Assembly: GCA_037131775.1 (NCBI GenBank)
Contig: JBAXQK010000002.1
Location: 87,493 to 151,492, forward strand
Source of the DNA: Candidatus Uhrbacteria bacterium
GTDB lineage: Bacteria > Patescibacteriota > Patescibacteriia > UBA9934 > GWF2-40-263
Reading direction: 5' to 3'
DNA length: 64,000 nt
Shown: in pieces, positions 7,417-64,000 of the stretch
Position numbering within the stretch: position 1 is the stretch's first letter
Layout: each line of letters opens with the position of its first letter
Program-made: the position numbers and the translations under genes
The notes under the pieces: model-generated
Told to the model about the DNA's origin: nothing
Database searches by the model: none
Seen by the model: the letters and a program-made list of their open reading frames with translations, nothing else

Positions 7417-7597
7417 AGCGATTTTTTGAGCTTGGCCGCCCAATGCGACCTTGCCCGGCCGGCTCAATGTGTCACGACGCGTGCCACTGAACCAGGCGGG
7501 CAAAAAATGCTCTTGTTAGGGTTGTTTTTTAATTAACGGCGAAATTGTAACAGAGGGAAAGGGATAATGCAAGGTCTGAACCACCTGTCAATCCAAC

Positions 7598-8149
7598 CTA
7601 CTCGATCGGCTCCAAATAGAACTGTTCTTCGCCAAAATCCTCGTCTTTTTGATCTTCTTTCTTCGGCTCGGCCTCTGCGGCCGACTTTTCCGGTTCCGCC
7701 GTCGCCATCCCCTTCCCCTGTTGATAATTCTCAAACTGTCGCTCCAAGTCCGTCTTTTCAACGTCCGACATCTTCGAAATGTCCCACGTCTCCGATTCCG
7801 ACCCCGCCGGACTCATCGCCTCCCAGATATCGGACGGCGGCGGTGCCTGTCTAGTTTCCCCTCCTTTTTGGAAGGAGGGGTCAGGGGTAGTCGTCGCGAC
7901 GGCAACGCTCGGCGGCCCGACCCTTCCCTCTTCCTCTTCCGGCTCGCAATCATTCCACCATTCTTCGCCGAAGCCAGCTTCAGACGGCAAGCCAGACGAT
8001 TTTTCAACGATTTCCTTAGGAACGACTAGATTTTCGTACTGTTCCAGTCCCATCACCACGTATACGTCGTCCCCGTTCGTGTCCGTCACGACCATCCGAT
8101 CGCCCGTTTTCCGTACCAAATTCAGGATGCGTCGAAGTTGTTTGTCCAT
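7598..8149 (-). CDS. Hypothetical acidic protein (Glu/Asp-rich)
   Basis: 183-aa ORF directly upstream of tuf; low-complexity acidic C-terminal half; no recognisable domain. Confidence 0.45.
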   Translation of the reverse strand: MDKQLRRILNLVRKTGDRMVVTDTNGDDVYVVMGLEQYENLVVPKEIVEKSSGLPSEAGFGEEWWNDCEPEEEEGRVGPPSVAVATTTPDPSFQKGGETRQAPPPSDIWEAMSPAGSESETWDISKMSDVEKTDLERQFENYQQGKGMATAEPEKSAAEAEPKKEDQKDEDFGEEQFYLEPIE

Positions 8150-8222
8150 ATCGGTAGGAAGATTAACAGGATTGATCGCATTTTAACGTAGAGGGACGTG
8201 AAGTCAAATCATACAGCTTGGA

Positions 8223-8297: not shown

Positions 8298-9677
8298 TTG
8301 GAGACAGTCATGCGGATTGATTACGAGGTCGGAGTCCTCGGCGCCGGAGTCACGGGAATCGCGACGGTTCTCGCACTCATCCTGTACACGAACGTCCGGA
8401 GCATCGTGGTGTTCGAGCGTCGCCGGGGACCCGCCCAGGTGAACTCAAGCCGGGTGAACAACAGCCAGACCCTGCACATGGGACGCGCCGAGTCGAACTA
8501 CACCGAGGCGCAGGCAGTCGCGGTCAGCGAGGACGCGCAGCTGGTCGCCGGCTTCGTCGAGCGGTTCGCTCCCGAGGCGGGACAGCCGATGTCCACGCAC
8601 ATGATCGCGGTGGGCAGCGCGGAGGTCGCCGAGTTTCGGAAGCGCCACACGATGCTGTCGCCGCACTTCCCGGACCTGCGTCTGCTCGAGCGAAGCGACC
8701 TTGCGCGGATGGCTCCCAAGCTCATCGAGGGCCGCGATCCGAGCGAGCCGATCGTCTCGCTCTTCTCCGAGGCGGGCTATGCCGTGGATTTCCAGACGCT
8801 CGGCGAGGCAATGCTCGCGAGAGCCGTGTTGGAAGCGAAGCGGATGGGAAAGACGCTCGACCTGCACTTCGACACGCAGGTGGATACCGTCAGGCAGGAG
8901 AAGGACGGGTTCGTGATCGTCGCGAACGGCAGCGAGTACCTGGTGAGGACGCTCGAGATCGCCGCCGGAAACGGGTCGCTGCTGATTGCTCACCAGCTTG
9001 GGTACGGCCGCGAGTTCGCAATGCTCCCCGTCGCGGGAAGCTACTTCGTCACGAAGACGCTCCTCGACGCAAAGGTGTACGGGTTCCAAGACCCGTCGAT
9101 CCCGCTCGCGAAGGCGCACTCCGACCCCGACGTGAACGACCGCGGCGTCATGCGCTTCGGCCCAACGGCCAGGCCGATGCCGCTCCTCGAGCGCGATTCC
9201 TGGTCGACTCTCTGGGAGTTCGTCCGCGTCGGCACCCTGAGTCCGCGCGGCCTCTGGGGGCTTGCCCGCGTTCTCCTGAACCTCCACCTCCTGATGTTCG
9301 GCGCGAAGAACGTCCTGTACGAGCTGCCATACGTCGGCAAGTGGTTCTTCGCCCGCATGGAGGCCCGCAAGATCTTCCCGACGATCCGCGCGCGCGACCT
9401 CGCGCTCGCCAAGGGCGCCGGCGGAATCCGCGGCCAGCTCATCGACCTGCGCACCGGTGCGCTCATGAAGGCCGAGCGGATCCTCCCGCCGGACGAAGTG
9501 CACGCCAACTGCATCCCCTCGCCGTCCCCGGGCGCCTCGAAGTGCCTCGGCAACGCGATCGTGAGCGTCCGTAACCACATGGTCTGGCAAGGTCCCGGCT
9601 ACCAGTTCGACGAGGCCCGCATGCGCGCAGACCTCCGCCGCACCAACTACGGCCCGCGCAAGACCGCCGCGTCCTAG
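8298..9677 (+). CDS. FAD-dependent oxidoreductase, malate:quinone oxidoreductase (Mqo)-like
   Basis: N-terminal GVLGAGVTG Rossmann motif; segments SSRVNNSQTLHMGRAESNYT and MLPVAGSYFV resemble E. coli Mqo ([31 protein letters not shown]). Confidence 0.6.
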   Translation: METVMRIDYEVGVLGAGVTGIATVLALILYTNVRSIVVFERRRGPAQVNSSRVNNSQTLHMGRAESNYTEAQAVAVSEDAQLVAGFVERFAPEAGQPMSTHMIAVGSAEVAEFRKRHTMLSPHFPDLRLLERSDLARMAPKLIEGRDPSEPIVSLFSEAGYAVDFQTLGEAMLARAVLEAKRMGKTLDLHFDTQVDTVRQEKDGFVIVANGSEYLVRTLEIAAGNGSLLIAHQLGYGREFAMLPVAGSYFVTKTLLDAKVYGFQDPSIPLAKAHSDPDVNDRGVMRFGPTARPMPLLERDSWSTLWEFVRVGTLSPRGLWGLARVLLNLHLLMFGAKNVLYELPYVGKWFFARMEARKIFPTIRARDLALAKGAGGIRGQLIDLRTGALMKAERILPPDEVHANCIPSPSPGASKCLGNAIVSVRNHMVWQGPGYQFDEARMRADLRRTNYGPRKTAAS

Positions 9678-12515: not shown

Positions 12516-13685
12516 ATGCCCAAACATCTCGCCGACTACGGCTCCGCGCCCGTCGACTTCGTCCGCGGAAACGGGTCCTACGTGTACGACAAGAACGGAA
12601 AGAAGTTCCTCGATTTCCAGACCGGCTGGTGCGTGGGCACCGTCGGATGGAAGAACAAGGAGATGGCCGAGGCGATCTCGGCCCAGGCGCGCGAGGGGTT
12701 CCATGAGCCGCCGTGGTTTCGCGTCGAGCGGCACGAGACGTTCGCGTCGCGCCTCGTCAAGCTCGCGCCGGGAAAGCTCAACCGCGTGTTTCGCGCGTGC
12801 TCAGGGTCCGAGGCGGTCGAGTTCGCCATCAAGGCCGCGCGCGCCGCGACGAAGAAACAGACGGTTGTGACGATCGAAGGCGTGTACCACGGCCACACGT
12901 ACGGTGCGGGATCGGTCGGAAACGCGTTCGGCGGAGTGCTGGAACCGTGCGACGGATTCGCGAAGGTACCGATGCCGAAGAATCAAAAGCAGGAAATCGA
13001 GACGCTCCGCGAGATCGAGGCGCTGTTCGCGCAGGGCGACGTCGCGGCATTCCTGTCCGAGCCGGTATGGACGAACGCCGGATGCTTCATCCCCTCGCCT
13101 GCCTTCTACCCCGCCGTCCAAACGCTTTGCCGCAACTACGGCGTCCTCCTTGCCATGGACGAAGTGGCCACCTGCATGGGCCGGTGCGGCAAAATGTTCG
13201 GATCGGAACTCTGGGGAATCGAGCCCGACATCGTCACGCTCGGCAAATCGTTCACGGGAGGGTACGCGACCATGGCCGCGACGCTGGTCACGGAATCCGT
13301 CTTCAAGAATGCCCGCGGCATCCCGTCGCATCCCACGTTCGGCTGGATGTTCCAGGACCTGGCCGCGGTCGAGAAGAACGTCGAGATCATCATCCGGGAC
13401 CGCCTCGACGAGAACGCGGCGGGCGTCGGCGCCTACCTGCTCGACCTTCTCAAGCCGCTCGAGTCGCTCAAAAAGGTCAAGGAAGTTCGCGGCATCGGCA
13501 TGGTCCTCGCCATCGAGTTCCACCTCCCCGTCGCCGTCCTCGTCGCCGCGAAATGCTACCGCGCCGGCCTGGTCGTCGAGTTCACCGATTCCAAGACCCT
13601 GTTCCTGAGCCCAATGCTCAACCTGAAAAAGTCCGACGCGCGCAAGGGAGCCGAGATCATCCGTGCCGCGTGCGGCCTGAAATAA
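12516..13685 (+). CDS. Class III pyridoxal-phosphate-dependent aminotransferase
   Basis: DEVATCMGRCGKMFG (DEVqTGfGRtG motif), TLGKSFTGG (PLP lysine), GSEAVEFAIKAAR; start at MPKHLADYG. Confidence 0.85.
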   Translation: MPKHLADYGSAPVDFVRGNGSYVYDKNGKKFLDFQTGWCVGTVGWKNKEMAEAISAQAREGFHEPPWFRVERHETFASRLVKLAPGKLNRVFRACSGSEAVEFAIKAARAATKKQTVVTIEGVYHGHTYGAGSVGNAFGGVLEPCDGFAKVPMPKNQKQEIETLREIEALFAQGDVAAFLSEPVWTNAGCFIPSPAFYPAVQTLCRNYGVLLAMDEVATCMGRCGKMFGSELWGIEPDIVTLGKSFTGGYATMAATLVTESVFKNARGIPSHPTFGWMFQDLAAVEKNVEIIIRDRLDENAAGVGAYLLDLLKPLESLKKVKEVRGIGMVLAIEFHLPVAVLVAAKCYRAGLVVEFTDSKTLFLSPMLNLKKSDARKGAEIIRAACGLK

Positions 13686-21904: not shown

Positions 21905-22026
21905 TTGCGAATAACGAATTTGTTACTAAATTGCATATGACACGAATGGCAGCGAACGTCACGAATTCGCAACGTTCGCAACAATTGGTATCATATGCAA
22001 TTTAGTAACAAATTCGTTATTCGCAA
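21905..22026. repeat. 122-bp element with perfect 36-bp terminal inverted repeats and nested inner palindromes, upstream of rpsL
   Basis: Left arm TTGCGAATAACGAATTTGTTACTAAATTGCATATGA (21905-21940) equals revcomp of right arm (21991-22026); 50-nt spacer contains GCGAACGT...CGAATTCG...ACGTTCGC; T-run follows on plus strand. Confidence 0.65.
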
Positions 22027-27111: not shown

Positions 27112-27259
27112 CCCAGGGACTTTAGTCCCGTCCTCCGAGTCGCGACGTTCCCACGATCGGGACTAAAGTCCCTGGGAATACGAGACGCCACTAAAGTGGC
27201 TGGGAAAACGATTTCATAGGGACTTTAGTCCCGTGCGCTTCCCAGGGACTTTAGTCCCG
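27112..27259. repeat. REP array (5 copies/variants of CCCAGGGACTTTAGTCCCG) 3' of the RAYT gene
   Basis: Copies at 27112-27130 (+), 27158-27176 (-), 27188-27204 (variant), 27218-27233 (+), 27241-27259 (+); GGGAC/GTCCC arms form a hairpin. Confidence 0.8.
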
Positions 27260-27791
27260 CCGTGATCCGCGTCGGCAATGACTCAAAGAATTCCTTTTCT
27301 CCCAGCGACATCACTGACGAGATAACATCATCCGCATACTCCTTCCCCTCTCGTACGATCACATAGCGATACGACGAAAATGGCCAGTCGAATAATTCCT
27401 GAAGATCCGTCACGTCGCCATGCTTCAAAGGATTGCCAATGACATATCCACGAACGCGATCGAGCAACGATTCCTTCATCGGAACGAATACGTGATATTC
27501 ACCCCAAACCGGCGACGCGATGTCCACCTGCCGTTTGACCTGAAACGAAACGCCGCCGTTAATCCACTGCAACATCGTAGGGATTACGTCGCTCTTCCCA
27601 AAGCTTCCAAGAAAATGATAGTGGTCCTCCATGATTCCATAGTCGGGACACTCGACGCCGAATTTGACGAACGCTTCCTCGAGGCGAACGCGAAGAAGTT
27701 CGCGGAGGGCGAGATCCTTGAAGATCGGTCGGTGACGATCCGTCGGGACGGTGATGAAGTACCAGGAATCGAGGAGGAAGAAACGAGACAT
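27225..27791 (-). CDS. REP-associated tyrosine transposase (RAYT, IS200/IS605 Y1 family)
   Basis: YFITVPTDRHRP, HuH motif EDHYHFLG, C-terminal YVIGNPLKHGDVTDLQELFDWPFSSYRY (compare E. coli RAYT YIYINPVKHGWVKQVSDWPFSTFH); both gene ends overlap REP copies. Confidence 0.8.
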   Translation of the reverse strand: MSRFFLLDSWYFITVPTDRHRPIFKDLALRELLRVRLEEAFVKFGVECPDYGIMEDHYHFLGSFGKSDVIPTMLQWINGGVSFQVKRQVDIASPVWGEYHVFVPMKESLLDRVRGYVIGNPLKHGDVTDLQELFDWPFSSYRYVIVREGKEYADDVISSVMSLGEKEFFESLPTRITAGLKSLGSARD

Positions 27792-27908
27792 ACTCGACGG
27801 GACTAAAGTCCCTGGGAATTCTTGACGCCACTGAAGTGACTGGGAATTACGTTTACGCTCTGACAGGATTCACAGGGACTTTAGTCCCGTCGGGTTTCCC
27901 AGGGACTT
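27790..27908. repeat. REP array (4 copies) 5' of the RAYT gene, in direct orientation relative to the 3' array
   Basis: 27790-27808 (-), 27820-27836 (variant), 27865-27881 (+), 27890-27908 (+); unit order mirrors 27158-27259. Confidence 0.8.
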
Positions 27909-39163: not shown

Positions 39164-39859
39164 CTATGCTCGCGTCGCCATAAACGTCGCGACGATGGCG
39201 GCGGTTTCGGCGCGGAGGATTCTTGGGCCGAGGTTGGCGGGGGTGAAGGTGGCGGCGCGCATGAGGTCGAGCTCGGCGGGGTCCCAGCCGCCCTCGGGGC
39301 CGATGAAGAGGCCCGTCGAGCCCGACGGGACTAAAGTCCCTGTGAAGTCAGGCGAGCCGGGCTCGAAGAGAAAGTTCGTCGCGTTCGATTTCGCGTGGAC
39401 GATGGCGAGTCTCAGCGACATAGGCTCGACAATCTCGGGAACGACGCCGCGGCCGCTTTGCTCGCAGGCTTCCGTCGCGATCTTTTGAAGGCGGTCGAGC
39501 TTCACGCCGAGCTTGATCGTGCGCGACGAGATGACGGGGATGATCGCGGCGACTCCGCACTCGACGGCCTTCTGGACGACGAGTTCGAAGTTCTCGCGCT
39601 TGAGCACGGCGCAGTAGAGCGTGACTTTGGTTGCGCTCTCGGTGTCGACGGCGCGACGGTCGATGATCTTCGCGACGATCGTCTTGTCGTCGGACACAAC
39701 CTGCACGGTCGCCTCCATCCCCTTCCCATCGCAGACAATGAACGGGTCTCCCGCCTCCATCCGAAACACGTTCCGAATCTGGTTCGTCGCCTCCCGATCG
39801 GAGATGACGAGTTCGTCGGCGGAGAGGTCGAGGTCGAGAATGAATCGGTGGAGGCGCAT
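39164..39859 (-). CDS. rsmE: 16S rRNA (uracil1498-N3)-methyltransferase RsmE, with an in-frame REP insertion
   Basis: MRLHRFILDL..., IGPEGGW motif; a 26-nt REP (TTCACAGGGACTTTAGTCCCGTCGGG, identical to 27862-27887) encodes DFTGTLVPSG between LFEPGS and IGPEGG. Confidence 0.8.
   Translation of the reverse strand: MRLHRFILDLDLSADELVISDREATNQIRNVFRMEAGDPFIVCDGKGMEATVQVVSDDKTIVAKIIDRRAVDTESATKVTLYCAVLKRENFELVVQKAVECGVAAIIPVISSRTIKLGVKLDRLQKIATEACEQSGRGVVPEIVEPMSLRLAIVHAKSNATNFLFEPGSPDFTGTLVPSGSTGLFIGPEGGWDPAELDLMRAATFTPANLGPRILRAETAAIVATFMATRA
39326..39342. repeat. REP copy embedded in rsmE coding sequence
   Basis: GGGACTAAAGTCCCTG on plus strand; same family as the RAYT-flanking REPs. Confidence 0.7.
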
Positions 39860-40791: not shown

Positions 40792-40894
40792 TGAAGACTC
40801 CTGAAGTTGTGAGTGGGAAAAATATATCACAGAATTGACGAAATGTCAATGGATTCAGGCGGATTTCGAAAAAAATACTAACAAAAACGACCGT

Positions 40895-41773: not shown

Positions 41774-41819
41774 CACGACGACCACCCCTGACCCCTCCTC
41801 CCTATGAGGAGGGGGAAAC
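41774..41819 (+). repeat. Hairpin repeat family 2, copy 1
   Basis: CACGACGACCACCCCTGACCCCTCCTCCCTATGAGGAGGGGGAAAC; stem CCCCTCCTC/GAGGAGGGG, loop CCTAT. Confidence 0.8.
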
Positions 41820-41867
41820 TTAGGAAGAAAAGAGACCCAGGACGCGGCGCGAGGCCGGGTCGGAGGG

Positions 41868-43967: not shown

Positions 43968-44076
43968 GATTTCCTCCAAACGAAAAGGGGTCAGTGGGTT
44001 CAAGGGGATCGAAGGAGTCGAGGGAAATATTTCCCTTGATCCCTCTGACACCCTCGATCCCCCCGACCCCTTTTAA

Positions 44077-45601: not shown

Positions 45602-46089
45602 ACAGCAGAGATCTCCGTTTCCCCATCATTTTCCTTACACGTTCCCCCTCCTGATAGGCAGGAGGGGTCAGGGGTGGTCGACGAGATTTTCGTGATGGTC
45701 ATCGCGCCGTCTTGGATCTTTTTAACGATCCTCGCTGGCAATCCAACTTCGATTTTCCTCAAGACCTTCTCCATATCCCCATACACGTCCCCGTTCGCGA
45801 CTCGCACGACGACGATCCCCTTCGACTCGACATACTTCGTCCGCGCAATGTCACTCTCCCGTTCGCCTTCCTCAAAATGACTCTGGCCATCGACCTCGAC
45901 GACGAGGCGAGCTTCAGGGCAATAAAAGTCGACAACGTACGGACCGATTCCGTGTTGACGGCGGAATTTTAAACCATGGAATTTTCGGCCCATGAGAAAT
46001 GACCATAATATTCCCTCGGCCGGCGATGCCTCGTTGCGGAGGGTTTGTCGGAGTGCTTTTTGGGTGGTGAGGTTGTAGAGAAGTTGCAT
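45598..46089 (-). CDS. DUF559 endonuclease-domain protein (Vsr/restriction-endonuclease-like fold)
   Basis: LRQTLRNEASPAEGILWSFL...FRRQHGIGPYVVDFYCPEARLVVEVDGQSH...GIVVVRVANGDV is the DUF559 consensus; C-terminal 45 aa read through repeat copy 2. Confidence 0.7.
   Translation of the reverse strand: MQLLYNLTTQKALRQTLRNEASPAEGILWSFLMGRKFHGLKFRRQHGIGPYVVDFYCPEARLVVEVDGQSHFEEGERESDIARTKYVESKGIVVVRVANGDVYGDMEKVLRKIEVGLPARIVKKIQDGAMTITKISSTTPDPSCLSGGGTCKENDGETEISAV
45641..45683 (-). repeat. Hairpin repeat family 2, copy 2 (inverted; variant stem CTG/CAG)
   Basis: GTTCCCCCTCCTGATAGGCAGGAGGGGTCAGGGGTGGTCGACG. Confidence 0.8.
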
Positions 46090-46104: not shown

Positions 46105-46196
46105 GCGCGACGACCGCCCCTTATCCCCTCCTGCCTATCAGGAGGGGGAACGTGGTTGAAAAATCGTTTCCCCTCCTGATAGGCAGGAGGGGAAAC
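46105..46196. repeat. Hairpin repeat family 2, copies 3 (forward, 46105-46152) and 4 (inverted, truncated, 46166-46196) as a tail-to-tail pair
   Basis: GCGCGACGACCGCCCCTTATCCCCTCCTGCCTATCAGGAGGGGGAACG ... CGTTTCCCCTCCTGATAGGCAGGAGGGGAAAC. Confidence 0.8.
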
Positions 46197-46225
46197 TTGA
46201 AAAGGGAGACGAATTACGACTGCCA

Positions 46226-47635
46226 TCATACCGCCCCGAACCACCTGACCACGTGCAAGATCACCGACGACACCGCGATTGCCGGGACGGCGACGATCGT
46301 TCCGACTGAGGGGACGAGGAACCCGGCCGCGAGGGCGATTCCCGTCATGGCCATGAGCATAGGGACAAGCGGGAGGACGATGAGGTTGACCACGGGCGAC
46401 AGGAGCGACACCGAGCCGAAGTGCCAGAGCATGATGGGGAGCGTCGCGACGATCGCGGCCATGCTTCCCGCGAAGGACTTGCGGAGCTCGAATGCCTCGG
46501 GGATGAATTTGCAACGTTCCTCGATCCTCGACGACCAGCCGAGCATCGCGGCAGTCGCGACGAACGACAATTGGAATCCAACGTCGTCGAGAAGCAACAG
46601 CGGGTTCCACATGAGCATCGCAGCAAGCGCGAGGAGCGTTACGTTGAGGATCGACGGCTTGCGTCGAATCAAAAACCCGACGAGCGTCATCGCGCCCATG
46701 ATGCCGGCGCGAACGACGGCGGCCGAGGCGCCGGCGACGATGACGTAGGAGACGAGGAGCGCGGCGGTAAGGTACGCGCCCTTGCGGCGACCGAGGACGG
46801 TGTGGGTGATGAAACCGAGGAAGACCATCGAGAACAGCGAGACGTTGAACCCGGACGCGGCGAGGATGTGCGAGGTTCCCGTCGCGGAGAAATCGTCCTG
46901 GAGGTCCTTTGAGAGCGTCGAGCTTCCGCCAAAAATGAGTCCCGCGAGGAACGACGCATGCGGCTCGGGGACGATCATGCGGAGGCGGCCGATCACGACG
47001 CGCTTCACCGTCAACAACGTCGCGACGATCCCGCCGCTCGACGGTTTTACGTCGACGAACTTCGGAGAAAAACACAGCGCGAGCACGCCCTGGCTGCGGA
47101 GATACTTGTCGTACGCGAACGTGCCGATCTGCGTCGGAACCTGAGGCCTGCACTCGAACGTGAGCGTGTCGCCGTACGCGATGGGCGGGAACGCGTCGAG
47201 CCAGACTTGGAGTTTTCCGTCGACCGAGGCGTCGGCGACCGAAAGACCGTCGAGAATGACGCGCTGTCCCGTGCCCGTCTCAACGACCTCGGACGAGACC
47301 GTCCCAGCGATCCGCGACGACCGGTCGGCCGCGTCCGCGATAGTCGGGACGTTCGAAGGGACGAGTGCTTGGCCGTAGCGCCAGGCGCCGAGGAGGAAGA
47401 GGGCGAGGCACAGGGAAACAAGAAGGCGCGACGACCACCCCTGACCCCTCCTCCCTATGAGGATGGGGAACGTGACGACGAATACTGCGATTAGCAGCGC
47501 GCGGTCGAACCCGAGAAACAACGGCCCGACCAATATTCCAAACGAAAAACAGACCATCGCCGCCGCGAATGACTTCGACGGCGAGCGGACGATCTTAGAG
47601 AGCAGGGACATACGCAGGAAAGAGACAGGATACAA
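46226..47635 (-). CDS. ComEC/Rec2 competence membrane channel domain protein (DUF4131 plus Competence domain)
   Basis: 469 aa polytopic membrane protein typical of ComEC N-terminal/central regions; contains repeat copy 5 in-frame (FPILIGRRGQGWSS). Confidence 0.75.
   Translation of the reverse strand: MYPVSFLRMSLLSKIVRSPSKSFAAAMVCFSFGILVGPLFLGFDRALLIAVFVVTFPILIGRRGQGWSSRLLVSLCLALFLLGAWRYGQALVPSNVPTIADAADRSSRIAGTVSSEVVETGTGQRVILDGLSVADASVDGKLQVWLDAFPPIAYGDTLTFECRPQVPTQIGTFAYDKYLRSQGVLALCFSPKFVDVKPSSGGIVATLLTVKRVVIGRLRMIVPEPHASFLAGLIFGGSSTLSKDLQDDFSATGTSHILAASGFNVSLFSMVFLGFITHTVLGRRKGAYLTAALLVSYVIVAGASAAVVRAGIMGAMTLVGFLIRRKPSILNVTLLALAAMLMWNPLLLLDDVGFQLSFVATAAMLGWSSRIEERCKFIPEAFELRKSFAGSMAAIVATLPIMLWHFGSVSLLSPVVNLIVLPLVPMLMAMTGIALAAGFLVPSVGTIVAVPAIAVSSVILHVVRWFGAV
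47426..47472 (+). repeat. Hairpin repeat family 2, copy 5, inside the ComEC-membrane ORF
   Basis: GCGCGACGACCACCCCTGACCCCTCCTCCCTATGAGGATGGGGAACG (one stem mismatch). Confidence 0.8.
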
Positions 47636-49056: not shown

Positions 49057-49235
49057 ACAGTTCGACTGCGCTCAGTGTGGATAGTGTGGGAAGGGTAACA
49101 AAAGGCTTGGAAAACTACAAACTGACGTAGTTTTTTATGTGGTTTGCCACCACACCGCCATTCCGAAAGGGCGGGGCGACCGCATGGTGTTGCGCAATTG
49201 TTTTTGGCTGATGCAGCTCCTTTTCCTTTCCCTCA

Positions 49236-49282
49236 CGTTTCCCCTCCTGATAGGCAGGAGGGGTCAGGGGTGGTCGTCGCGC
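49236..49282 (-). repeat. Hairpin repeat family 2, copy 6 (inverted)
   Basis: CGTTTCCCCTCCTGATAGGCAGGAGGGGTCAGGGGTGGTCGTCGCGC. Confidence 0.8.
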
Positions 49283-52902: not shown

Positions 52903-55620
52903 ATGGACAAGAAGGGCAAGCCACCTGAGGGCGCAATGGAGGAGACGACGGCGGTCGACGACGCGCGACGACCACCCCTGACCCCTCCTCCCTATGAGGA
53001 GGGGAAACGTAGGGTATCGAGGAAGACCGTCGAGAGTGCCGCGGCGATTACGGCGGCGGCGATGGGGATTGCGCATGCGGTGATTGAGGTTCCGAAGGAG
53101 GGACCGACGGCGGACGAGTCGTCCGAGGCGAAGGGCGAAGATGCCGAACATCCGGAATGGAAATACAACGCGGTCGGCGAAATCGTGCGCGAGACCGTCT
53201 TTCACGACGAGAACTCGACGGGCGGCGTGCAAGACCAGTACGTCAGCCTGTTCAAGACGGTCTTTTCGTCGCCGAAGGGAACGTGCGTCTATTACGACAC
53301 GCTGGGCAACGTCCTGCTGGTCGACAAGATGCCGGACGTCCTGGCGCAACTGGCCGAGTCAATCGAGAAGGGCGCCGGCACGAAAAAAGAGCTGGACGCG
53401 ATGACGAAGACCTGGAAAGACAAGGTCCAGGCATGGCACAACGCGAACCGAAAGAAAATCTCGGCCGTGACCGTGACGCCCTCCGACTACGACGACAAGT
53501 GGGCATATCCGTTCGTCGCGAGCCCCGTGCTCAAGAACATGCCCGCCGAATCGGAAGCGACCTCCCTGATCGAGGGGATTCGTGAACGGCTCGTGGAAAA
53601 GACGAAGAGTCCGGAGAATGGCCCGTCTTACTTCGACGGCGCGGAGCGTTCGATCTACGACGGCATCTCCGAGATTGCGAAAGCGTACGACATTCCGCTT
53701 GCCATCGCGCTTGGCATCGCCGCGAACGAAAGCACGTTCAACCGGACGGCCCACTCGGATGCCGGCGCGAACGGAATCTATCAGGTTACGGAAAAAGGGT
53801 TCGGCGACGCCAAGGCGTACATCGCCAAGCATCCCGAGCTCGGGGCGGCCGTCCGATCGGGATCCATCGGGTCGTACGAGGACTCCTGGAAGGACCGCTT
53901 CGTCAGCGCCGAGCTGTGCTGCGCGTACTATCTGCTCATCCAGGGGCGCATGCGCAAGAAGCTCGACGCGCTCGAGACGCGCCTGCTCACGCTCGACCCG
54001 ACCTTTCCCGTGGGAACGTTCCTCGACATCGCCACGATCAATTCCTACAACGCCGGCGACGGGCGCATGCGTGACTGCATCGACCGGTTCCTGTCCCTTT
54101 CCGACGACGAGATCGTTGCACACATCGGCGATCCGGAATACGGCGCGGACGTCTGGCTCGGCGTGGTCGGCCTCTCGTACGGGCTCACGGACGACGGAAA
54201 ATTTTCGAACGTGGGAAAGGACAGCTTCCTGTATCCGCAAAAAATCCTCGCCATGGGATCGCTCATCATGGACGCGCAGAACGCGATGTCCGCGGTCGAC
54301 CGCGACCGGGAGGACGAGGGCGTCGACGCAGGCGACTTCGTTCCCGACTCGGCGACGCGCCGCGGTTTCTGGAGGAACCTGTCCGTCGCCACCGGCATTG
54401 CGGGCGTCCTTGGCGGAATATTTTCCGGCAACGGCGCGGTCCGCGACATTCGCTCGGAACCTCTGAACACAAGCGTGAGCAGACGGAATTTGCTGAAAGG
54501 GACGGCAAAGGCCACGGCCGCGGTCATCGGAGTCACCTCCCCCGTCATTCGCGCCGGGGCGGACTGGCTCGATTCGCGCCCTGTGACGGAGACTCCGCCT
54601 GAAGTGCCTCCCGTGTCCCCGGAACAGCCGTACGCTCCCGTCGAGCTTGAGCCACTGAAGGACGTGGAAGCGGCCGCGACCGTCTCGCTGGACGCGGTGT
54701 ACGAGACGCTTTTGGAACGAGCCGCGCAGAAGAAAACGGGATGGACCCCCGAGGAATCCAAGCGAAACAACAACCTCTTTCCCGTTCCAGAAAATCGCAG
54801 GATGCTCAAAGAGCGATTCATCGCCATGTTTGGAAAGGACCTGGTAAAGAAATTCAAGGCATCCGAAGGCGACACGTTCGAAAGCCGCGCGCATCTGTAC
54901 GACGAGGCTCGCGCCCAGCAGGTCGCCTACATCGAACGGCAGGTTTCCACGGGAAGCTTCGTTCGTCTTGCGGAAGACGACCCGACGAAGCCGTACTTCT
55001 GCGAACAGGTCGACTCGCTCTCGGGTATCAAGAACAACCCGGACGGACTCTTTCTCCGCAAGGAATTTATTCCGGTGATCGGAACGCTGATTGAACTCGT
55101 CAATTACCAGATCGACAAGTTCAATGCCAACAATCTGTACTACGGCATCCATGGGGACAGTTTCCCGACCCTTCCGTACATCTCCGCCTTGAAAATCAGC
55201 GGAGCCCTCCGATCGACGCTTACCACGAAGGGACAGTTCGCGTCTGGAAAAGGAAAGGACACGACTCCCGGGATGACTCCGCATTGGCTTGGAAGCGCAA
55301 TGGACATCTCTTCGTTCGCGACCGTGCCGCACAAGGACAAGAAGTCGGGAAAGATGGTGGGTCCGATGGGACACATGGCCCGGCTGGATGGCGACCTACT
55401 GGCAAAGAAAGGCGGACGGGTCATCGTTCGTCGCGGAGAAAAGCTAAACAACGGCGGCGACGGGGCAACGACCCGCGACATACTCACGCACATGATCGGC
55501 CGCGCGCTTTTCGCGATGCGCGACCCGCTGATGGAACTGTACGGGATTGAGATTCAGCCAAAGTGGGAGAATCCTGCCAAGAACTGGCACGTCGCGCTGG
55601 AGGCAAAGGATGCGAAGTAA
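52903..55620 (+). CDS. Large multidomain cell-wall hydrolase: lytic transglycosylase (SLT) domain plus C-terminal M15 (VanY-like) peptidase domain
   Basis: AANESTFNRTAHSDAGANGIYQV is the SLT catalytic motif; C-terminal HWLGSAMDIS (HxxGxAxD) and NWHVALE (WH); one internal TM; true start may lie downstream of the repeat. Confidence 0.65.
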   Translation: MDKKGKPPEGAMEETTAVDDARRPPLTPPPYEEGKRRVSRKTVESAAAITAAAMGIAHAVIEVPKEGPTADESSEAKGEDAEHPEWKYNAVGEIVRETVFHDENSTGGVQDQYVSLFKTVFSSPKGTCVYYDTLGNVLLVDKMPDVLAQLAESIEKGAGTKKELDAMTKTWKDKVQAWHNANRKKISAVTVTPSDYDDKWAYPFVASPVLKNMPAESEATSLIEGIRERLVEKTKSPENGPSYFDGAERSIYDGISEIAKAYDIPLAIALGIAANESTFNRTAHSDAGANGIYQVTEKGFGDAKAYIAKHPELGAAVRSGSIGSYEDSWKDRFVSAELCCAYYLLIQGRMRKKLDALETRLLTLDPTFPVGTFLDIATINSYNAGDGRMRDCIDRFLSLSDDEIVAHIGDPEYGADVWLGVVGLSYGLTDDGKFSNVGKDSFLYPQKILAMGSLIMDAQNAMSAVDRDREDEGVDAGDFVPDSATRRGFWRNLSVATGIAGVLGGIFSGNGAVRDIRSEPLNTSVSRRNLLKGTAKATAAVIGVTSPVIRAGADWLDSRPVTETPPEVPPVSPEQPYAPVELEPLKDVEAAATVSLDAVYETLLERAAQKKTGWTPEESKRNNNLFPVPENRRMLKERFIAMFGKDLVKKFKASEGDTFESRAHLYDEARAQQVAYIERQVSTGSFVRLAEDDPTKPYFCEQVDSLSGIKNNPDGLFLRKEFIPVIGTLIELVNYQIDKFNANNLYYGIHGDSFPTLPYISALKISGALRSTLTTKGQFASGKGKDTTPGMTPHWLGSAMDISSFATVPHKDKKSGKMVGPMGHMARLDGDLLAKKGGRVIVRRGEKLNNGGDGATTRDILTHMIGRALFAMRDPLMELYGIEIQPKWENPAKNWHVALEAKDAK
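52963..53009 (+). repeat. Hairpin repeat family 2, copy 7 (in the 5' part of the large hydrolase ORF)
   Basis: GCGCGACGACCACCCCTGACCCCTCCTCCCTATGAGGAGGGGAAACG. Confidence 0.8.
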
Positions 55621-57698: not shown

Positions 57699-57828
57699 GG
57701 TGGCCTCCTTTGGATAGGGGGGATCAACAAGATTCTGTGGTTCAGCGGAGGGGTAGGATATCATAAAAATGGGGTTTTGTCAATGGATTCGCCTATTTCC
57801 GAATAAAAAGAACGCCTATGAGTAGGCG

Positions 57829-58918: not shown

Positions 58919-59015
58919 TGAGGACTCCGTTGTTGATTGTTGTGAGATGACGAAGAGGGCCCGCCCAGATATCTCTGGATCTGACGGAAAAGAATGATAT
59001 CACAAAAATGGCTCT

Positions 59016-59040
59016 TTGTCAATGCAAAAACCGCCTTTTT
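59016..59040. terminator. Bidirectional hairpin terminator
   Basis: AAAAACCGCC-TTTTT-GGCGGTTTTT. Confidence 0.5.
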
Positions 59041-60404: not shown

Positions 60405-60500
60405 AGTGGTTGAGTGATGAAGTGATTGAGTGATTGAGTGATGGAGGATTAAGCCGCAAAGCCACTCCACGACTTCACCACTCCATCACTCCGTCACTTC
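60405..60500. repeat. Tandem heptamer (GAGTGAT/T)n followed by its imperfect inverted complement (CACTCCA...)
   Basis: GTTGAGTGATGAAGTGATTGAGTGATTGAGTGATGGAGG ... CCACTCCACGACTTCACCACTCCATCACTCCGTCACTTC between infB stop and trxA start. Confidence 0.5.
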
Positions 60501-60501
60501 T

Positions 60502-62541
60502 TTACCGCAGATCAATTCCTTCGATGTTGAGAATGCGCGTCTTGGATTCCTCGTAGTACGTTTCCAGGATGTCGCCGACTTCGATCTTGGCCTTGCCCTG
60601 ATACTCGATGCCGCACTCGGAGCCGCCGTTCACTTCCTTCACGGACTGCTTGCCGTACTGCAACTTCACGATCTCCCCCTCGCCGATGACTTCCGGCTCG
60701 CCGGTGACCGGGGACATGCGCATCGCGCGCAGCTTGCATCCGACGCGAATCTTCTCGCCCAGGATCTTGCCGCCGATGACGCCGCCCTTGTCGAGCTTCT
60801 TGAACACCGCGAGCACCTCGATCTTTCCGGTCTCGGTGATGATCTGCTCGTTCGGAAGCATCTTCTGCAGGCGCGCGAGGATGTCCTCGAACAGCTTATA
60901 GATGACCTCGAACTGGAGGATCTCCACGTTCTTATCGCGGCCGTGCGAGGCGGCGCTGGCGGTCGGCTTCACGTCAAAGGCATACACGATGGAGTGCGTC
61001 GCCTCGGCCTTGTCCACGTCCACGTCGGTGATGTTTCCGAGACCCTTCGCGACCACTTCGACGCCGACCAGGTCGTGCTTCACCTTCTCAAGCATGCCGA
61101 GCACCGCCTCGAGCGAACCGAGCACGTCGGCGCGCAGGATGATGTTGAGCAATTTTTTGCCTTCCTTGTTCTCCGGCTTGGAAATCGTCGAGACGGTGGA
61201 TTCCACGGCCGACGTCACCGGCTTGCGCATGCGCGCCAGGGCCTTCTCGTCCTCCGGAACCTCGATCACGTCTCCCACCGCCGGGGCGACTTTAAATCCA
61301 AGAATCTTCACCGGCATGCTGGGCGCCGCGTCCTTCACGATCTCGCCCTGCCAGTTCTTCATCATGCGCACGCGGCCGAACAGCGCGCCGCGAATGCCGA
61401 TGGTATCGCCCATGCGAAGCGTTCCGGCCTGGATGAGCGCCGTCGCGACCGGGCCTTCGCCCTTGTCGATGTGCGACTCGATGATCGTTCCGGCCGCGCG
61501 GCGGTCCGGGTTTGCCACGATCTTGGCCTGTTCCATCTCGTTGACGAGAAGCAGCGCGTCCAAGAGCTCGTCCATCCCCTGCCCCGTCTTCGCGGACACC
61601 GGGATGATCATCGTCTTTCCACCCCACTCTTCCGGCAACAGGTTGAGCTCGGCGAGCTGTCCCTTCACGCGCTCCGGATTGGCATCGGGCTTGTCGATCT
61701 TGTTGAGCGCGACGACGTACGGAAGACCGGCGGCCTTGATGATGTCCACGGCCTCCTTGGTCTGCGGCTGCACGCCGTCGTCGGCGGCGACCACGAGAAT
61801 GGCGATGTCGGCGACCTTGGCTCCGCGCGAACGCATGACGGTAAACGCCTCGTGTCCAGGAGTGTCGATAAACGTAATCAGCTTCTCCTTGCGGACGACC
61901 TGGTACGCGCCGATGTGCTGCGTGATTCCTCCGGCCTCGGATTCCATCACGTTGGTGGTGCGGATCGAGTCGAGGATCTTCGTCTTTCCATGGTCGACGT
62001 GGCCCATCACCACGATGACCGGCGGACGTGCCTTCAGGTTCTCCTGCTTCTCGCCGGCGAACAGCGCCGTCAAACGCGACGCGCCCTCGTCATCCTTCGC
62101 GTCGTCGGCAGGCTTTCCAACCTGCGGCTCGGCCTTCACGCCGAGGTCGCCGGACACGATCGCGGCCGTTTCAAAATCGATGCGTTCGTTCAACGAGGCC
62201 AAGATGCCGTTCTTCATCAGTTCGCGCATCACCTTCGCCATCGGGATGTCGATGAGCGCCGCGAAGTCGCGCACGGTCATGACCGCCGGAAGCATGACGG
62301 TCCGAATGACCGCCGGAGCATCCCCAGCCTTCTGAGCCGCCCCGCGGTTCAATTGCTCGTCGCGAATCGCCCCCATTCGCTCACGTCGCTTCATTTCGGC
62401 CCATGCCGCAACAATGCGATTCGCGTCGCGATCGTTCACCTTCACGGAGTTGCGCCCATATCCCAAGCCCAACGTGGGAAGTTTCTCGCGCAGCTCATCG
62501 GTAGGAACCTTCAGTTTACGGGCGATTTCTGTAATGTTCAT
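60502..62541 (-). CDS. infB: Translation initiation factor IF-2
   Basis: 679 aa; G-domain [17 protein letters not shown]...DTPGH; C-terminal IF-2 domains. Confidence 0.97.
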   Translation of the reverse strand: MNITEIARKLKVPTDELREKLPTLGLGYGRNSVKVNDRDANRIVAAWAEMKRRERMGAIRDEQLNRGAAQKAGDAPAVIRTVMLPAVMTVRDFAALIDIPMAKVMRELMKNGILASLNERIDFETAAIVSGDLGVKAEPQVGKPADDAKDDEGASRLTALFAGEKQENLKARPPVIVVMGHVDHGKTKILDSIRTTNVMESEAGGITQHIGAYQVVRKEKLITFIDTPGHEAFTVMRSRGAKVADIAILVVAADDGVQPQTKEAVDIIKAAGLPYVVALNKIDKPDANPERVKGQLAELNLLPEEWGGKTMIIPVSAKTGQGMDELLDALLLVNEMEQAKIVANPDRRAAGTIIESHIDKGEGPVATALIQAGTLRMGDTIGIRGALFGRVRMMKNWQGEIVKDAAPSMPVKILGFKVAPAVGDVIEVPEDEKALARMRKPVTSAVESTVSTISKPENKEGKKLLNIILRADVLGSLEAVLGMLEKVKHDLVGVEVVAKGLGNITDVDVDKAEATHSIVYAFDVKPTASAASHGRDKNVEILQFEVIYKLFEDILARLQKMLPNEQIITETGKIEVLAVFKKLDKGGVIGGKILGEKIRVGCKLRAMRMSPVTGEPEVIGEGEIVKLQYGKQSVKEVNGGSECGIEYQGKAKIEVGDILETYYEESKTRILNIEGIDLR

Positions 62542-63557
62542 GCAGGGGGAGTATATCGGGATCGGGGGTTGGAGTCAATGGATTCGGAGACGCGGCGTGC
62601 CAGCCTTTGCCCGTTGCCATGTGCCAGGAGTCCTTGGTACGACGCAATGGCCAACTCTCCCGCGCCACCATTGATCGCGGCGAACATGCGCGCCTCCGTC
62701 GAATGTCGAAGAACTCGATGGTCCGGAAAGTGGACCCAACCTAGGAAATCAACGCCGGATGCGAACGTCCGGATCTCGACCTTGTCGGGATGGAGTTCAA
62801 GTTGGAGCTCGCGCGACAGGAAGTCGCGGATGCAGTCCAGGGCGACGACAAGGTAATCGCGATCGTGGAACAGTAATGCGAAGTCGTCGGCGTAACGAAC
62901 ATAGTGACGCACGCTCAAGCGACACTTCACGTACTGGTCGAGCGCATCCATATAGACGTTCGCAAACAACTGCGACGTCAGGTTGCCGAGCGGCAGCCCC
63001 TTGCCCGACTGGACATGAAAACTCCGCACGATCGTTTCCAGGAGCGCGACGGTGCGCGTGTCGGCGATCCGCCCGCCGACGATTCGCAAGAGGACGTCGT
63101 GATCGATGGACGCGAAGAACTTCCGAATGTCGCATTTCAAGACCCAAGCGGTTCTACGATGGTTGCGCGAAATTTGTCCCGCAAACATCCGAAACCGATC
63201 CATCGCCGCGTGCGTTCCCTTCTCGTCGCGGCAGGAAAACGAGTCCGAGATGAACGTCCGGTCGAAAGCGGGGTATAATTGCCGGTGGATGGCACGGTGC
63301 AGAACACGGTCCGCGACGGTCGCCTTGTGAATCTGCCTCGGCTTCGGGTCGGAGATGGCGAACGCACGGTACGGCCCGTGGCGGTACGTCCCGTTTGCCA
63401 GCCGTCGGTGAAGCTGAATCAGATTTCCCATCAGACCAAACGCAAACGCTTGCGTATCTTCCCTCCCGCGCTTCCCGATGACGAATTCTTCCCATGCGCC
63501 TAACAAATTCTCGAGCGAGATAATTTCCTCATAGCTATGCAAGTCCAACGTTCCCAT
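62538..63557 (-). CDS. Diversity-generating retroelement (DGR)-type reverse transcriptase
   Basis: RT motifs: RAFAISDPKPRQIHKATVADRVLHRA (1-2), GKGLPLGNLTSQLFANVYMD (motif 4 with the DGR-specific LGxxxSQ, compare Brt LPIGNLTSQ), YVRYADDFALL (YxDD); about 339 aa, no maturase/En domain; stop overlaps infB start (ATGA). Confidence 0.85.
   Translation of the reverse strand: MGTLDLHSYEEIISLENLLGAWEEFVIGKRGREDTQAFAFGLMGNLIQLHRRLANGTYRHGPYRAFAISDPKPRQIHKATVADRVLHRAIHRQLYPAFDRTFISDSFSCRDEKGTHAAMDRFRMFAGQISRNHRRTAWVLKCDIRKFFASIDHDVLLRIVGGRIADTRTVALLETIVRSFHVQSGKGLPLGNLTSQLFANVYMDALDQYVKCRLSVRHYVRYADDFALLFHDRDYLVVALDCIRDFLSRELQLELHPDKVEIRTFASGVDFLGWVHFPDHRVLRHSTEARMFAAINGGAGELAIASYQGLLAHGNGQRLARRVSESIDSNPRSRYTPPA
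62550..62578 (-). promoter_or_regulatory. Promoter candidate for infB embedded in the RT 3' end (TTGACT-17-TATACT, near-leaderless)
   Basis: Minus-strand GAATCCATTGACT...TATACT about 8 nt before the infB ATG; shares a GAATCCATTGACA-17-TATnnT motif with sites at about 15610, 25740, 40850, 57780 and 59010. Confidence 0.35.
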
Positions 63558-63972
63558 GCCAAAGATGCTACCCCCCCCCCGCAATTTCTTGCCAGTGCTC
63601 CAAAAGCTGAAGTCGGCCTACCTCGCCTGGTTTGACGACTACGCCAGGCTCCCAAAGGTCCACAGGTATTCCATCGGCACGCGCGTCGACAATCTGCTCG
63701 TGGAATGCATCGAGTCGGTAAGCGAGGCTGCGTTCACTCCGGGGATGGACAAGGCTCCGTGCATCCGCCTTGCCGCGCGAAAGCTCGACACGGTAAAGCT
63801 ATTCCTCATGATCCTGTGGGAAGCGCATTCGATCGACCAGGGCCGATACATTGAGCTTTCCGTTCGGTTCGACGAAATCGGCCAGAACCTCGGCGGGTGG
63901 CTCGGCAGCGTTCTCAAGCCGAAGCCGGAGCCGAAACAAAACTCCCCGGAGCCGGTGTCCGAGGAGAAATGA
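63556..63972 (+). CDS. Avd-like accessory variability determinant (four-helix-bundle protein), divergent from the RT
   Basis: LPKVHRYSIGTRVDNLLVECIES...RKLDTVKLFLMILWEAHSI...FDEIGQNLGGWLG parallels Bordetella phage Avd (IPRKHGVAREMFL...LAMLRFWLRF...AEVGRILGSWI); start ATG shares a CATG with the RT start. Confidence 0.7.
   Translation: MPKMLPPPRNFLPVLQKLKSAYLAWFDDYARLPKVHRYSIGTRVDNLLVECIESVSEAAFTPGMDKAPCIRLAARKLDTVKLFLMILWEAHSIDQGRYIELSVRFDEIGQNLGGWLGSVLKPKPEPKQNSPEPVSEEK
63571..63580. repeat. C10 homopolymeric tract inside the 5' end of the Avd-like ORF, upstream of the RT start
   Basis: cta-cccccccccc-gc read directly; encodes PPPR at residues 6-9. Confidence 0.9.
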
Positions 63973-64000
63973 AGAGGGTTGCGGCGGGCGCGGAAACGGG

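Follow-up and report, generated by a model that had tools for sequence, protein, structure and literature searches.

The right edge of the window, as we call the whole 64,000-nt stretch of Candidatus Uhrbacteria DNA that was analyzed, cuts through a diversity-generating retroelement (DGR). With a probability of roughly 0.88, we consider that this edge carries the reverse transcriptase (RT) gene, the accessory variability determinant gene (avd), and the 3' tip of the template repeat (TR) of a complete chromosomal DGR of this CPR/Patescibacteria lineage. In this reconstruction, the element has the B3 anatomy, acts by mutagenic retrohoming, and lies in a 3.8-kb insertion next to infB, which would still be expressed from its own promoter. 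The sequence past window base 64000 was taken from the full public contig (L001). What an earlier sequence-only reading observed in the letters is correct throughout.

On the RT strand, the components are arranged in the following order: (i) the target gene with the variable repeat (VR), (ii) a hairpin with a T-run, (iii) a leader of about 330 nt, (iv) the TR, (v) a hairpin with a U-run, (vi) avd on the opposite strand, (vii) the RT gene, and (viii) infB (Table 1). The TR-(avd)-RT order corresponds to architecture B3, to which 90% of CPR DGRs belong (Wu et al. 2018, PMC5758913). Eighty related loci were fetched, and in all those with enough upstream sequence except L087 the best Avd match is divergent from the RT gene and directly upstream of it. 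Thus, the divergent avd/RT layout, regarded as unusual in the earlier sequence-only reading of this DNA, is the common one, and the window DGR is one more member of a large CPR group and ordinary for its lineage.

Table 1. Features of the DGR and of the adjacent infB gene (window positions unless L001 is indicated)
Feature	Position	Strand	Description
infB (IF-2, 679 aa)	60502-62541	-	TIGR00487, E 3e-171; neighbor of the DGR, not part of it
RT of the DGR, 339 aa from ATG	62538-63557	-	LGNLTSQ (motif 4) and catalytic YADD; Pfam RVT_1
Terminal 47 nt of the RT ORF (tail SIDSNPRSRYTPPA and stop)	62538-62584	-	Homologous to DNA upstream of infB in DGR-free L007
infB promoter (predicted)	62550-62578	-	-35 TTGACT 62573-62578, 17-nt spacer, -10 TATACT 62550-62555, 8 nt to ATG; consensus scan; within the RT ORF, at its 3' end
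avd, 138 aa from ATG 63556 or 135 aa from 63565	63556-63972	+	Head-to-head with the RT gene; HMM matches
C10 (avd strand) / G10 (RT strand)	63571-63580		Codes for PPP close to the N-terminus of Avd; 13 nt ahead of the RT ATG
Stem-loop (63942-63966) with U-rich run (63933-63941)	63933-63966	-	Directly 3' of the TR on the TR/RT strand
TR 3' tip, last 28 nt	63973-64000	-	IMH*-type end ...CCGCCGCAACCCTCT; TR/VR alignment
TR, 166 nt	L001 9420-9585	RT strand	Beyond the window except for the last 28 nt
VR, 166 nt	L001 8925-9090	RT strand	Beyond the window
Target gene, 227 aa	L001 8409-9092	RT strand	Last 166 nt form the VR

Reverse transcriptase and Avd

The RT matches Pfam RVT_1 (E 3.2e-22) and contains both GLPLGNLTSQ and YADD, the two motifs pointed out in the sequence-only reading, which are invariant in 25 relatives. 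Motif 4 of the form [LIV]GxxxSQ is diagnostic of DGR RTs. The top PDB match is 8ub7_A (328 aa, E 1.4e-43), which we take to be the Bordetella phage DGR RT, compared with an E value of 8.9e-24 for a group II intron RT. RTs about 60% identical to the window RT are found in thousands in Patescibacteria. Judged from its sequence, the window RT is of the DGR type.

It is extremely improbable that this is instead a retron, group II intron, or defence (DRT/Abi) RT. Its strongest NCBIfam match is a group II RT/maturase model (E 1.6e-42), Drt and retron models match it weakly, and its homologs carry a 'retron-type' label in several sources. However, TIGR04416 (group II RT/maturase) yields 145.9 bits against a cut-off of 300, and the retron, Drt, and Abi models all score far under their curated cut-offs, whereas the nearest solved structure is the presumed DGR RT, and an avd gene and an adenine-specific TR/VR pair accompany the RT gene. 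An Rfam search at E up to 1 over the 4.1 kb around the RT (L001 7100-11200) revealed no intron or retron RNA. We therefore rejected both the group II intron and the retron/DRT/Abi assignments. The DGR core proposed from the sequence alone is confirmed by the 8ub7_A match, the Avd family, and the TR/VR pair.

The product of the divergent gene, previously described as Avd-like, matches NCBIfam DivGenRetAVD (NF033474, E 7.6e-13) and Pfam bAvd (PF22296, E 9e-7), in both cases under the curated cut-off. DivGenRetAVD is matched by 40/40 Avd relatives (best E 8.5e-22), and the sole PDB match of the Avd family profile is 4dwl (E 0.31), deposited as Bbp7 and presumably bAvd. These matches support the assignment of the window protein to the Avd family at the level of the family. 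The RT and avd start codons share one CATG (63555-63558), as had been observed, provided that the first avd ATG is used; the gene caller applied to the public contig picked the second in-frame ATG, at 63565. The gene ends 28 nt short of the window edge, again as described.

Template repeat, variable repeat, and target protein

The sequence-only reading reported no TR/VR pair in the window and expected the repeats and the target gene beyond base 64000. No complete pair is indeed present within the 64,000 nt, though the last 28 nt of the TR lie inside, and the extended contig contains both the pair and the target gene just past the edge. The two 166-nt repeats are 92% identical, the TR being located 495 nt downstream of the VR; a second VR was found neither in the window nor in L001. 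All 11 mismatches in the core of the repeats fall on TR adenines, which constitute 18% of the TR; by simple arithmetic, the chance of 11/11 is about 7e-9, and thus the pattern is far above chance. According to the aligned codons, the 11 core mismatches are all nonsynonymous, and the TR contains six AAC codons. TR adenines account for a similar share of the TR/VR differences in relatives: 16/16 in L030, 21/21 in L032, 12/12 in L033, and 12/15 in L031. At the repeat end, two fixed differences distinguish CAACCCTCT of the TR (IMH*) from CAAGCGTCT of the VR (IMH) in 5/5 loci.

Three contigs of a sister lineage, L030, L031, and L032, encode an identical RT protein, and their TRs are identical in two contigs and one base off in the third, yet the contigs carry three different VRs that differ at TR-adenine positions. 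The combination of the same RT and a near-identical TR with different VRs in sister populations argues that the element family is active; this evidence of recent diversification, which the window DGR adds, comes from the sister lineage, the population of the window itself being represented by one contig.

Since avd is inverted between the TR and the RT gene, the region 3' of the TR is antisense to avd, and the stem-loop with the U-run in this region lies on the strand opposite the codons for the C-terminal tail of Avd. The stem-loop was flagged as a terminator-like site in the scan and is kept in 23/83 loci with compensatory changes in the stem, whereas the L001 sequence folded alone is no better than shuffled sequence. 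The TR RNA may end at this structure, or the structure may serve as a functional 3' flank of this RNA. Another hairpin, followed by a T-run, is located after the VR (z -4.9) and is present also in L030 and L033, and the conserved leader before the TR ends in a strong hairpin. The consensus promoter scan identified no promoter for the TR, avd, or RT. The hairpins flanking the TR provide concrete boundaries for the uncharacterised DGR RNA of B3-type elements.

The target protein has no Pfam domains and no sequence similarity to FGE-sulfatase or DUF1566, and its family comprises 16 proteins in a search of 5.8 billion proteins. It is predicted to contain a minimal C-type-lectin-like domain of about 150 aa, preceded by a three-helix segment that is modelled at low confidence. 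A small, uncharacterised family with a putative minimal lectin-like fold is added to the DGR targets.

By analogy with the DGR family, the window element is expected to act by mutagenic retrohoming. The TR would be transcribed, probably as a discrete RNA between the two conserved hairpins. The RT together with Avd would copy this RNA to cDNA with misincorporation opposite adenines, and the cDNA would replace the VR, guided by the GC-rich IMH end at a presumed priming step. The predicted outcome is the recoding of about 10 residues in the putative C-type-lectin-like domain of the target.

Insertion upstream of infB

The RT stop codon TGA overlaps the infB start codon as ATGA (TCAT on the plus strand, 62538-62541), as the sequence-only reading had stated, and all infB orthologs start with MNITEIAR at the same ATG. 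The same reading placed nusA as the normal upstream neighbor of infB and considered the RT and IF-2 to be translationally coupled; neither suggestion was sustained. In the DGR-free Uhrbacteria relatives L007, L003, L005, and L008, infB is preceded by a divergent truB gene; the infB identities of the DGR-free relatives are 95, 83, 79, and 66%. In the BLASTN comparison of L007 with L001, the alignment resumes at L001 10974, which is window position 62584, and thus the right junction of the insertion is at 62584/62585, 43 nt upstream of the infB ATG. The DGR, a MazE-PIN pair, and a DUF433 gene arrived between truB and infB as this 3.8-kb insertion. Because the insertion ends so close to infB, the RT ORF crosses the infB promoter and terminates with the TGA that is part of ATGA; the resulting tail is common only to the infB-adjacent RTs P0001-P0003.

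The layout of the infB promoter is retained in 7/7 orthologous loci, including DGR-free L007, with a gap of 7-8 nt to the ATG. L007 and the window have equal hexamers, spacing, and 8-nt gap and differ by few substitutions in the spacer, and a pattern of the TTGACT-17-TATACT-8-ATG type occurs just twice in the whole window. The arrangement is predicted to be of the leaderless type. Most likely, infB is still expressed from this promoter, and coupling is therefore unnecessary to explain the ATGA overlap, which is most simply viewed as a by-product of the insertion. Some coupling at ATGA may still occur on transcripts that read through from the RT gene into infB.

It is distinctly improbable that RT and infB form a functional operon, in which ATGA makes IF-2 synthesis dependent on RT translation or vice versa. 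The overlap is real and is found also in the sister lineage (RT identity of 85%), and in one gene call for L121, another CPR genome, the start of a DHH-family gene overlaps the RT 3' end by 4 nt. Nevertheless, besides the conserved promoter of infB, nearly unchanged in the DGR-free relative, the RT tail at the overlap is former promoter DNA and is unconserved among RTs, and L033 carries the same cassette in an unrelated context. Insertion next to an intact promoter explains the infB-side position of the DGR.

A conserved simple repeat in avd

The C-run that had been noticed in the first 25 nt of avd consists of exactly 10 C. A G/C homopolymer of 6-14 nt (mode 9-10) occupies the same place, about 10 codons into avd, in 62/70 related loci, and at this site three other loci carry (GA)n, (GT)n, or (GGCT)n. 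Most of the related elements have a slippery repeat here, which also lies just upstream of the RT start and is mostly a G/C run of 8-12 nt.

The upstream avd start is in frame with the body of the gene in 23/62 tract loci and out of frame in 39/62. In the window, C10 is in frame with both nearby ATGs, and hence avd reads ON. The avd bodies are nonetheless intact in the out-of-frame loci (36/36 of the complete ones), which suggests slippage-controlled expression of Avd via the conserved repeat. We found no report of a simple repeat in avd or of slippage-controlled Avd in the accessible literature. The C10 run may be one instance of a contingency switch that acts on the mutator throughout most of this RT clade of CPR DGRs, a proposal to which we give even odds: production of full-length Avd would depend on changes in repeat length at the DNA level, or on slippage by RNA polymerase or the ribosome, and targeted hypermutation would be on only in a subpopulation or at a low level.

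We consider it unlikely that the run is an incidental, neutral homopolymer or an assembly artefact that the choice of the avd start makes irrelevant. The frames of the upstream ATG are distributed at about one third each way (23 in, 21 and 16 out, and 2 ambiguous), as for an unrelated ATG; an in-frame TTG, GTG, or ATG follows soon after the run in 28/39 out-of-frame loci; and homopolymer lengths in assemblies are error-prone. However, G runs of at least 8 nt are concentrated at the junction, with 64 in the 100-nt junction windows versus 4 G/C runs of at least 8 nt in the remaining ~430 kb, and neither this concentration nor the substitution of other simple repeats at the same spot fits a neutral run. 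The intact avd bodies argue against it as well, and 11/39 out-of-frame loci have no canonical start past the run. Moreover, avd is in frame from an ATG upstream of the run site in all five examined repeat-free loci (L059, L063, L100, L103, and L108), and the sole difference between L087 and L091 over 7,265 bp is G10 versus G8.

Somewhat less likely again is an effect of the G run on the RT instead of avd, either as the spacer of a promoter that yields leaderless RT mRNA or as a G-rich decoy for ribosome binding, with tract length tuning RT transcription or translation. TAnnnT, 7 nt, and the RT ATG directly follow the run in 11/62 tract loci, of which the window is one; this order mirrors the layout of the infB promoter, and a weak -35-like hexamer is located 15-19 nt upstream of TAnnnT. 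This layout is limited to a subfamily, whereas other loci have a Shine-Dalgarno-like stretch and at least 18 nt between the run and the RT ATG; the -35 candidates match just 3-4 of 6 positions, and the dinucleotide and tetranucleotide substitutes fit frame switching better.

To our knowledge, CPR is the most DGR-rich lineage. If frame switching of avd is true, a stochastic on/off switch on the essential cofactor Avd would be a simple answer to the question of how cells restrain or time DGR mutagenesis in this lineage, and the conserved slippery repeat is potentially weightier than the DGR itself.

Comparison with known systems

Clade 2 of Roux et al. (2021, PMC8144416) comprises cellular, mostly aquatic DGRs restricted to Patescibacteria and is probably the same group as the B3 DGRs of CPR. 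The window element shares with the latter (PMC5758913) the way in which the TR, inverted avd, and RT are ordered and oriented, a chromosomal, cellular rather than phage location, and a small target without Pfam domains. It differs from them in that it abuts the infB promoter and its RT ORF ends on the infB start, and in the very small target family; the simple repeat in avd is not described in the accessible papers.

The DGR of Bordetella phage BPP-1 (mtd-avd-TR-brt) has RT and Avd of the same families (8ub7_A and 4dwl), adenine-specific TR-to-VR differences, AAC codons, repeat ends that differ between TR and VR, and a VR followed by a hairpin; its variable domain is C-type-lectin-like, as is predicted for that of the window target. 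In the window, by contrast, an inverted avd separates the TR from the RT gene and contains a homopolymer, the element resides on a bacterial chromosome, and its target is no phage tail fibre. The minimal domain of the window target has only weak similarity to the C-type-lectin variable proteins TvpA (2y3c) and Mtd (1yu0). The classical nusA-infB operon of E. coli and B. subtilis has infB itself in common with this locus, where no nusA is upstream and infB is divergent from truB, with its own promoter 7-8 nt from the ATG.

Contingency loci underlie phase variation in Neisseria, Haemophilus, and Campylobacter, and a poly-C tract is present in the Bordetella fim promoters. The avd repeat resembles these loci in several respects: (i) the 5' coding region contains a G/C homopolymer (8-12 nt) or repeated di- or tetranucleotides, (ii) genes that are otherwise intact are found both in frame and out of frame, and (iii) tract length differs between near-identical sequences. 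Unlike in the known contingency loci, the putative controlled gene encodes a cofactor of targeted mutagenesis rather than a surface antigen or a restriction system, and the putative avd switch could equally well operate through slippage of RNA polymerase or the ribosome.

Composition of the retroelement

The right edge of the window carries part of a diversity-generating retroelement (DGR) that is real, complete on the extended contig and probably active. The reverse transcriptase (RT) and the divergent accessory gene avd are as described in the sequence-only reading, including both of their overlaps: (i) the RT TGA and the infB ATG overlap as ATGA, and (ii) the start codons of avd and RT lie within the shared CATG at 63555-63558. 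An alternative RT start at TTG 63584 was ruled out, since homologues have only 5-7 residues ahead of the conserved His.

No complete repeat pair involving the RT/avd region was found inside the window, and the sequence-only reading had placed the template repeat (TR) and variable repeat (VR) probably beyond base 64000. The region was extended with L001 (ena:ERZ27300037:k141_293879), a 90.5-kb public contig encoding the RT protein, whose coordinates x convert to window positions as 73558 - x. The two sequences differ by 1 base across the 11.5 kb in common (at 53785, where the window has G and the ENA contig T), and the window reaches about 2.5 kb past the start of the contig; thus, the window belongs to a different assembly of this genome.

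A direct repeat of 166 nt lies immediately past base 64000, and one of its copies forms the 3' end of a nearby gene, the target, as had been anticipated. All 11 core differences between the copies fall at adenines of the downstream copy, which is therefore the TR. By simple arithmetic, the chance of 11 out of 11 is about 7e-9, as adenine makes up 18% of the TR. As read from the aligned codons, the TR has six AAC codons and none of the 11 changes is synonymous. The repeat ends carry two fixed differences, TR CAACCCTCT versus VR CAAGCGTCT. No further VR was detected in the window or in L001. In a consensus scan for promoters, the target gene, MazE and infB each had a site, and TR, avd and RT had none.

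Features of the window and of the contig L001
Feature	Window	L001	Strand	Details
infB (IF-2)	60502-62541		-	IF-2 model E 3e-171
infB promoter	62550-62578			TTGACT-17-TATACT-8-ATG, same in L007
DGR RT	62538-63557		-	339 aa; GLPLGNLTSQ and YADD; RVT_1 match
avd	63556-63972		+	138 aa; NF033474 E 7.6e-13, PF22296 E 9e-7
C run	63571-63580		avd strand	exactly 10 nt
Stem-loop and U-run	63933-63966	9586-9625	-	directly 3' of TR
TR	63973-64000 (last 28 nt)	9420-9585		adjoins avd stop codon
VR		8925-9090		3' end of target gene
Target gene		8409-9092		227 aa; beyond the window
MazE-PIN pair and DUF433 gene		7261-8217		beyond the window
GGAGTGATG-like inverted repeat	60405-60517	13041-13153		between infB and thioredoxin gene
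Stretch similar to this inverted repeat		7146-7182		left insertion junction
CCCCTCCT/AGGAGGGG palindromes	7851-7896, 41776-41829, 45638-45683, 46109-46208, 47429-47482, 49234-49279, 52966-53019		both orientations	45-55 nt, GC-rich
CGGGACTAAAGTCCCTGGGAA hairpins	27158-27209, 27770-27849, 39302-39349			small hairpin repeat
CATTGACAAA…TG.TATCAT	40812-40851, 57746-57785, 58985-59024		-	promoter-like motif
Long palindrome	21905-22026			arms 61 nt, 89% complementary
Long palindrome	43983-44074			arms 46 nt, 76% complementary

Related loci and activity

By its infB, which is 98% identical to isolate LJ_bin-4636, the host belongs to Candidatus Uhrbacteria. A sister lineage (RT protein P0002; loci L002 and L030-L032) has the same layout including both overlaps, and its RT is 85% identical. 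In a further locus, L033, with an RT 81% identical, the same target-TR-(avd)-RT cassette occupies an unrelated neighbourhood. The TR/VR differences in the sister-lineage loci and in L033 are adenine-specific, with the same two fixed differences at the ends. Loci L030, L031 and L032 encode an identical RT protein and a near-identical TR (one base off in L032), together with three different VRs, which is good evidence of an active element family.

One sister population has a deletion of about 420 bp (L030 4527-4626 compared with L032 2284-2804) that takes out the 3' part of the PIN gene along with the 5' part of the target, which is thereby shortened to 140 aa. Even so, the VR of this shortened target departs from the TR at 16 adenines.

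Predicted RNA structures

The VR is followed by a hairpin and a T-run, also present in L030 and L033. The TR is preceded, at a distance of 35 nt, by a strong hairpin whose sequence differs among L001, L030 and L033, with the pairing kept. On the other side of the TR, a motif of the form TTCATTTCTC-stem-loop-stem-GAGTTTTGTTT follows directly in 23 of 83 loci, distant ones included, and shows compensatory changes in the stem and a variable loop length. From these flanking hairpins we infer that the TR RNA would be a discrete transcript bounded by them. The post-TR stem-loop is antisense to the C-terminal tail of Avd (KQNSP...GEK), and the RNA element may thus have a part in shaping this tail.

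The junction with infB

The sequence-only reading assumed that nusA normally precedes infB. In four DGR-free Uhrbacteria loci, L007, L003, L005 and L008 (infB 95, 83, 79 and 66% identical, respectively), the upstream gene is instead a divergent truB and nusA is not there; the window neighbourhood inspected, which showed rpsL-rpsG-fusA, also lacks nusA. Relative to L007, 121 nt of the truB-infB spacer are swapped in the window lineage for 3,831 nt carrying MazE, PIN, DUF433, target, TR, avd and RT. Homology to L007 restarts at window 62584, which leaves 43 nt before the infB ATG; thus, the last 14 RT codons are old promoter DNA. The RT tail is common only to infB-adjacent RTs, and the conserved RT core stops earlier.

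A sigma-70-type infB promoter is retained, with the -10 box ending 7-8 nt from the ATG in all seven orthologous loci (L002-L008 included), which implies that the infB mRNA would be leaderless or nearly so. This promoter pattern occurs only twice in the whole window, the other occurrence being near 42432 on the minus strand. The apparent fusion of the DGR to infB is thus explained by insertion beside an intact promoter, and the simplest view of the ATGA overlap is that it is a by-product of the cassette landing site. Of the translational coupling proposed between RT and IF-2, the overlap stands and the need for coupling does not: with the infB promoter intact, coupling is possible on read-through transcripts but not required.

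The MazE-PIN pair of the 3.8-kb insertion is a toxin-antitoxin pair, and a PemK toxin gene adjoins the cassette in L033. Downstream of infB lies a long, imperfect inverted repeat composed of 8-nt GGAGTGATG-like units, and a similar stretch is found at the left junction. The link between the two is doubtful since the short motif is common in the window, and these units were dropped as insertion-flanking repeats for the same reason. In another CPR genome, one gene call (L121, 2484-2487) lets the start of a DHH/DHHA1 gene overlap the 3' end of a related DGR RT by 4 nt, and a second call, in L122 with identical sequence, moves that start 30 nt further on. RTs adjoining housekeeping genes may thus not be unique to the infB locus.

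A repeat tract at the avd/RT junction

The C run inside avd has counterparts across the related loci. We compared the window tract with the junctions of loci L033-L113, where a G run on the RT strand of 6-14 nt (mode 9-10) was found in 62 of 70 loci. Runs of at least 8 nt number 64 in the 100-nt junction windows versus 4 in the other ~430 kb. Three loci without a homopolymer (L083, L090 and L102) carry (GA)n, (GT)n or (GGCT)n in that position.

The start of avd was fixed using the five repeat-free loci examined, in all of which avd begins in frame at an ATG antisense to the conserved His7 codon of the RT; hence, the avd start in this family lies upstream of the repeat. In the tract loci an ATG is always open into the run, and only 23 of the 62 have it in the frame of the avd body. 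Alternatively, the ATG before the run may be irrelevant to avd, and the one-third distribution of frames is that expected from an irrelevant ATG. Among the 39 out-of-frame loci, 11 have no in-frame ATG, GTG or TTG after the run, and the 36 out-of-frame avd bodies that are complete are all intact, with a normal length. The run could also be a spacer of a leaderless RT promoter, as a subfamily that includes the window has the arrangement G(n)-TAnnnT-N7-ATG(RT).

The run length varies, with C10 in the window, C7 in the sister lineage and C9 in L033. Homopolymer lengths can be wrong in assemblies. Over 7,265 bp, the sole difference between loci L087 and L091 is G10 versus G8. The conservation of the tract, its frame states and its length differences together bear the hallmark of a contingency-type switch, or of expression dependent on slippage by RNA polymerase or the ribosome. 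Among contigs with identical RTs, no tract occurs in the P0086 loci, the two P0017 loci shown do not differ, and all three P0002 loci carry G7. Taken as a switch, the conserved slippery repeat is moderately supported as a gate on Avd, and hence on DGR activity, across the clade. The window avd reads as ON, with two ATGs close by that share the frame of its run.

Our literature search for an earlier report of an avd/RT homopolymer covered targeted terms in Roux 2021, a 2024 survey and Wu 2018, together with the accessory-gene section of the last, and found none; Paul et al. 2017, the chief study of DGRs in CPR bacteria, lay outside this search.

Other repeats in the window

The GC-rich palindromes (…CCCCTCCT…AGGAGGGG… flanked by GGTCGTCG) are probably intergenic REP-like elements or terminators. 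The window also contains the second hairpin family CGGGACTAAAGTCCCTGGGAA and two nearly perfect, spacer-less long palindromes. The repeated motif CATTGACAAA…TG.TATCAT looks like the strong sigma-70 consensus of this genome.

Comparison with known systems

The best solved match of the RT is 8ub7_A, a 328-aa reverse transcriptase that we take to be the Bordetella phage DGR RT (E 1.4e-43, versus 8.9e-24 for group II intron RTs). Scores with the group II, retron and Drt models are far under their cut-offs, and 4.1 kb around the element gave no Rfam match at E up to 1, thus neither an intron nor a retron RNA. Together with the adenine-specific repeats, these results bear out the proposed DGR identity. 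The single window Avd falls under the curated cut-offs of both NF033474 and PF22296, and a PDB sequence search with it alone returned nothing relevant; yet all 40 Avd relatives match the Avd model. The sole PDB match of the family profile, a weak one, is 4dwl (deposited as Bbp7), presumably bAvd.

The sequence-only reading considered the divergent avd/RT layout unusual. Wu et al. 2018 (PMC5758913) classify TR-(avd)-RT with inverted avd as architecture B3, which accounts for 90% of their CPR set. Among 80 related metagenome loci with RTs 53-63% identical, wherever the upstream sequence was long enough, the best Avd match lies immediately ahead of the RT and on the other strand, the only exception being L087. 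Thus, divergent avd is the norm for the lineage, and the window DGR is of the standard CPR kind.
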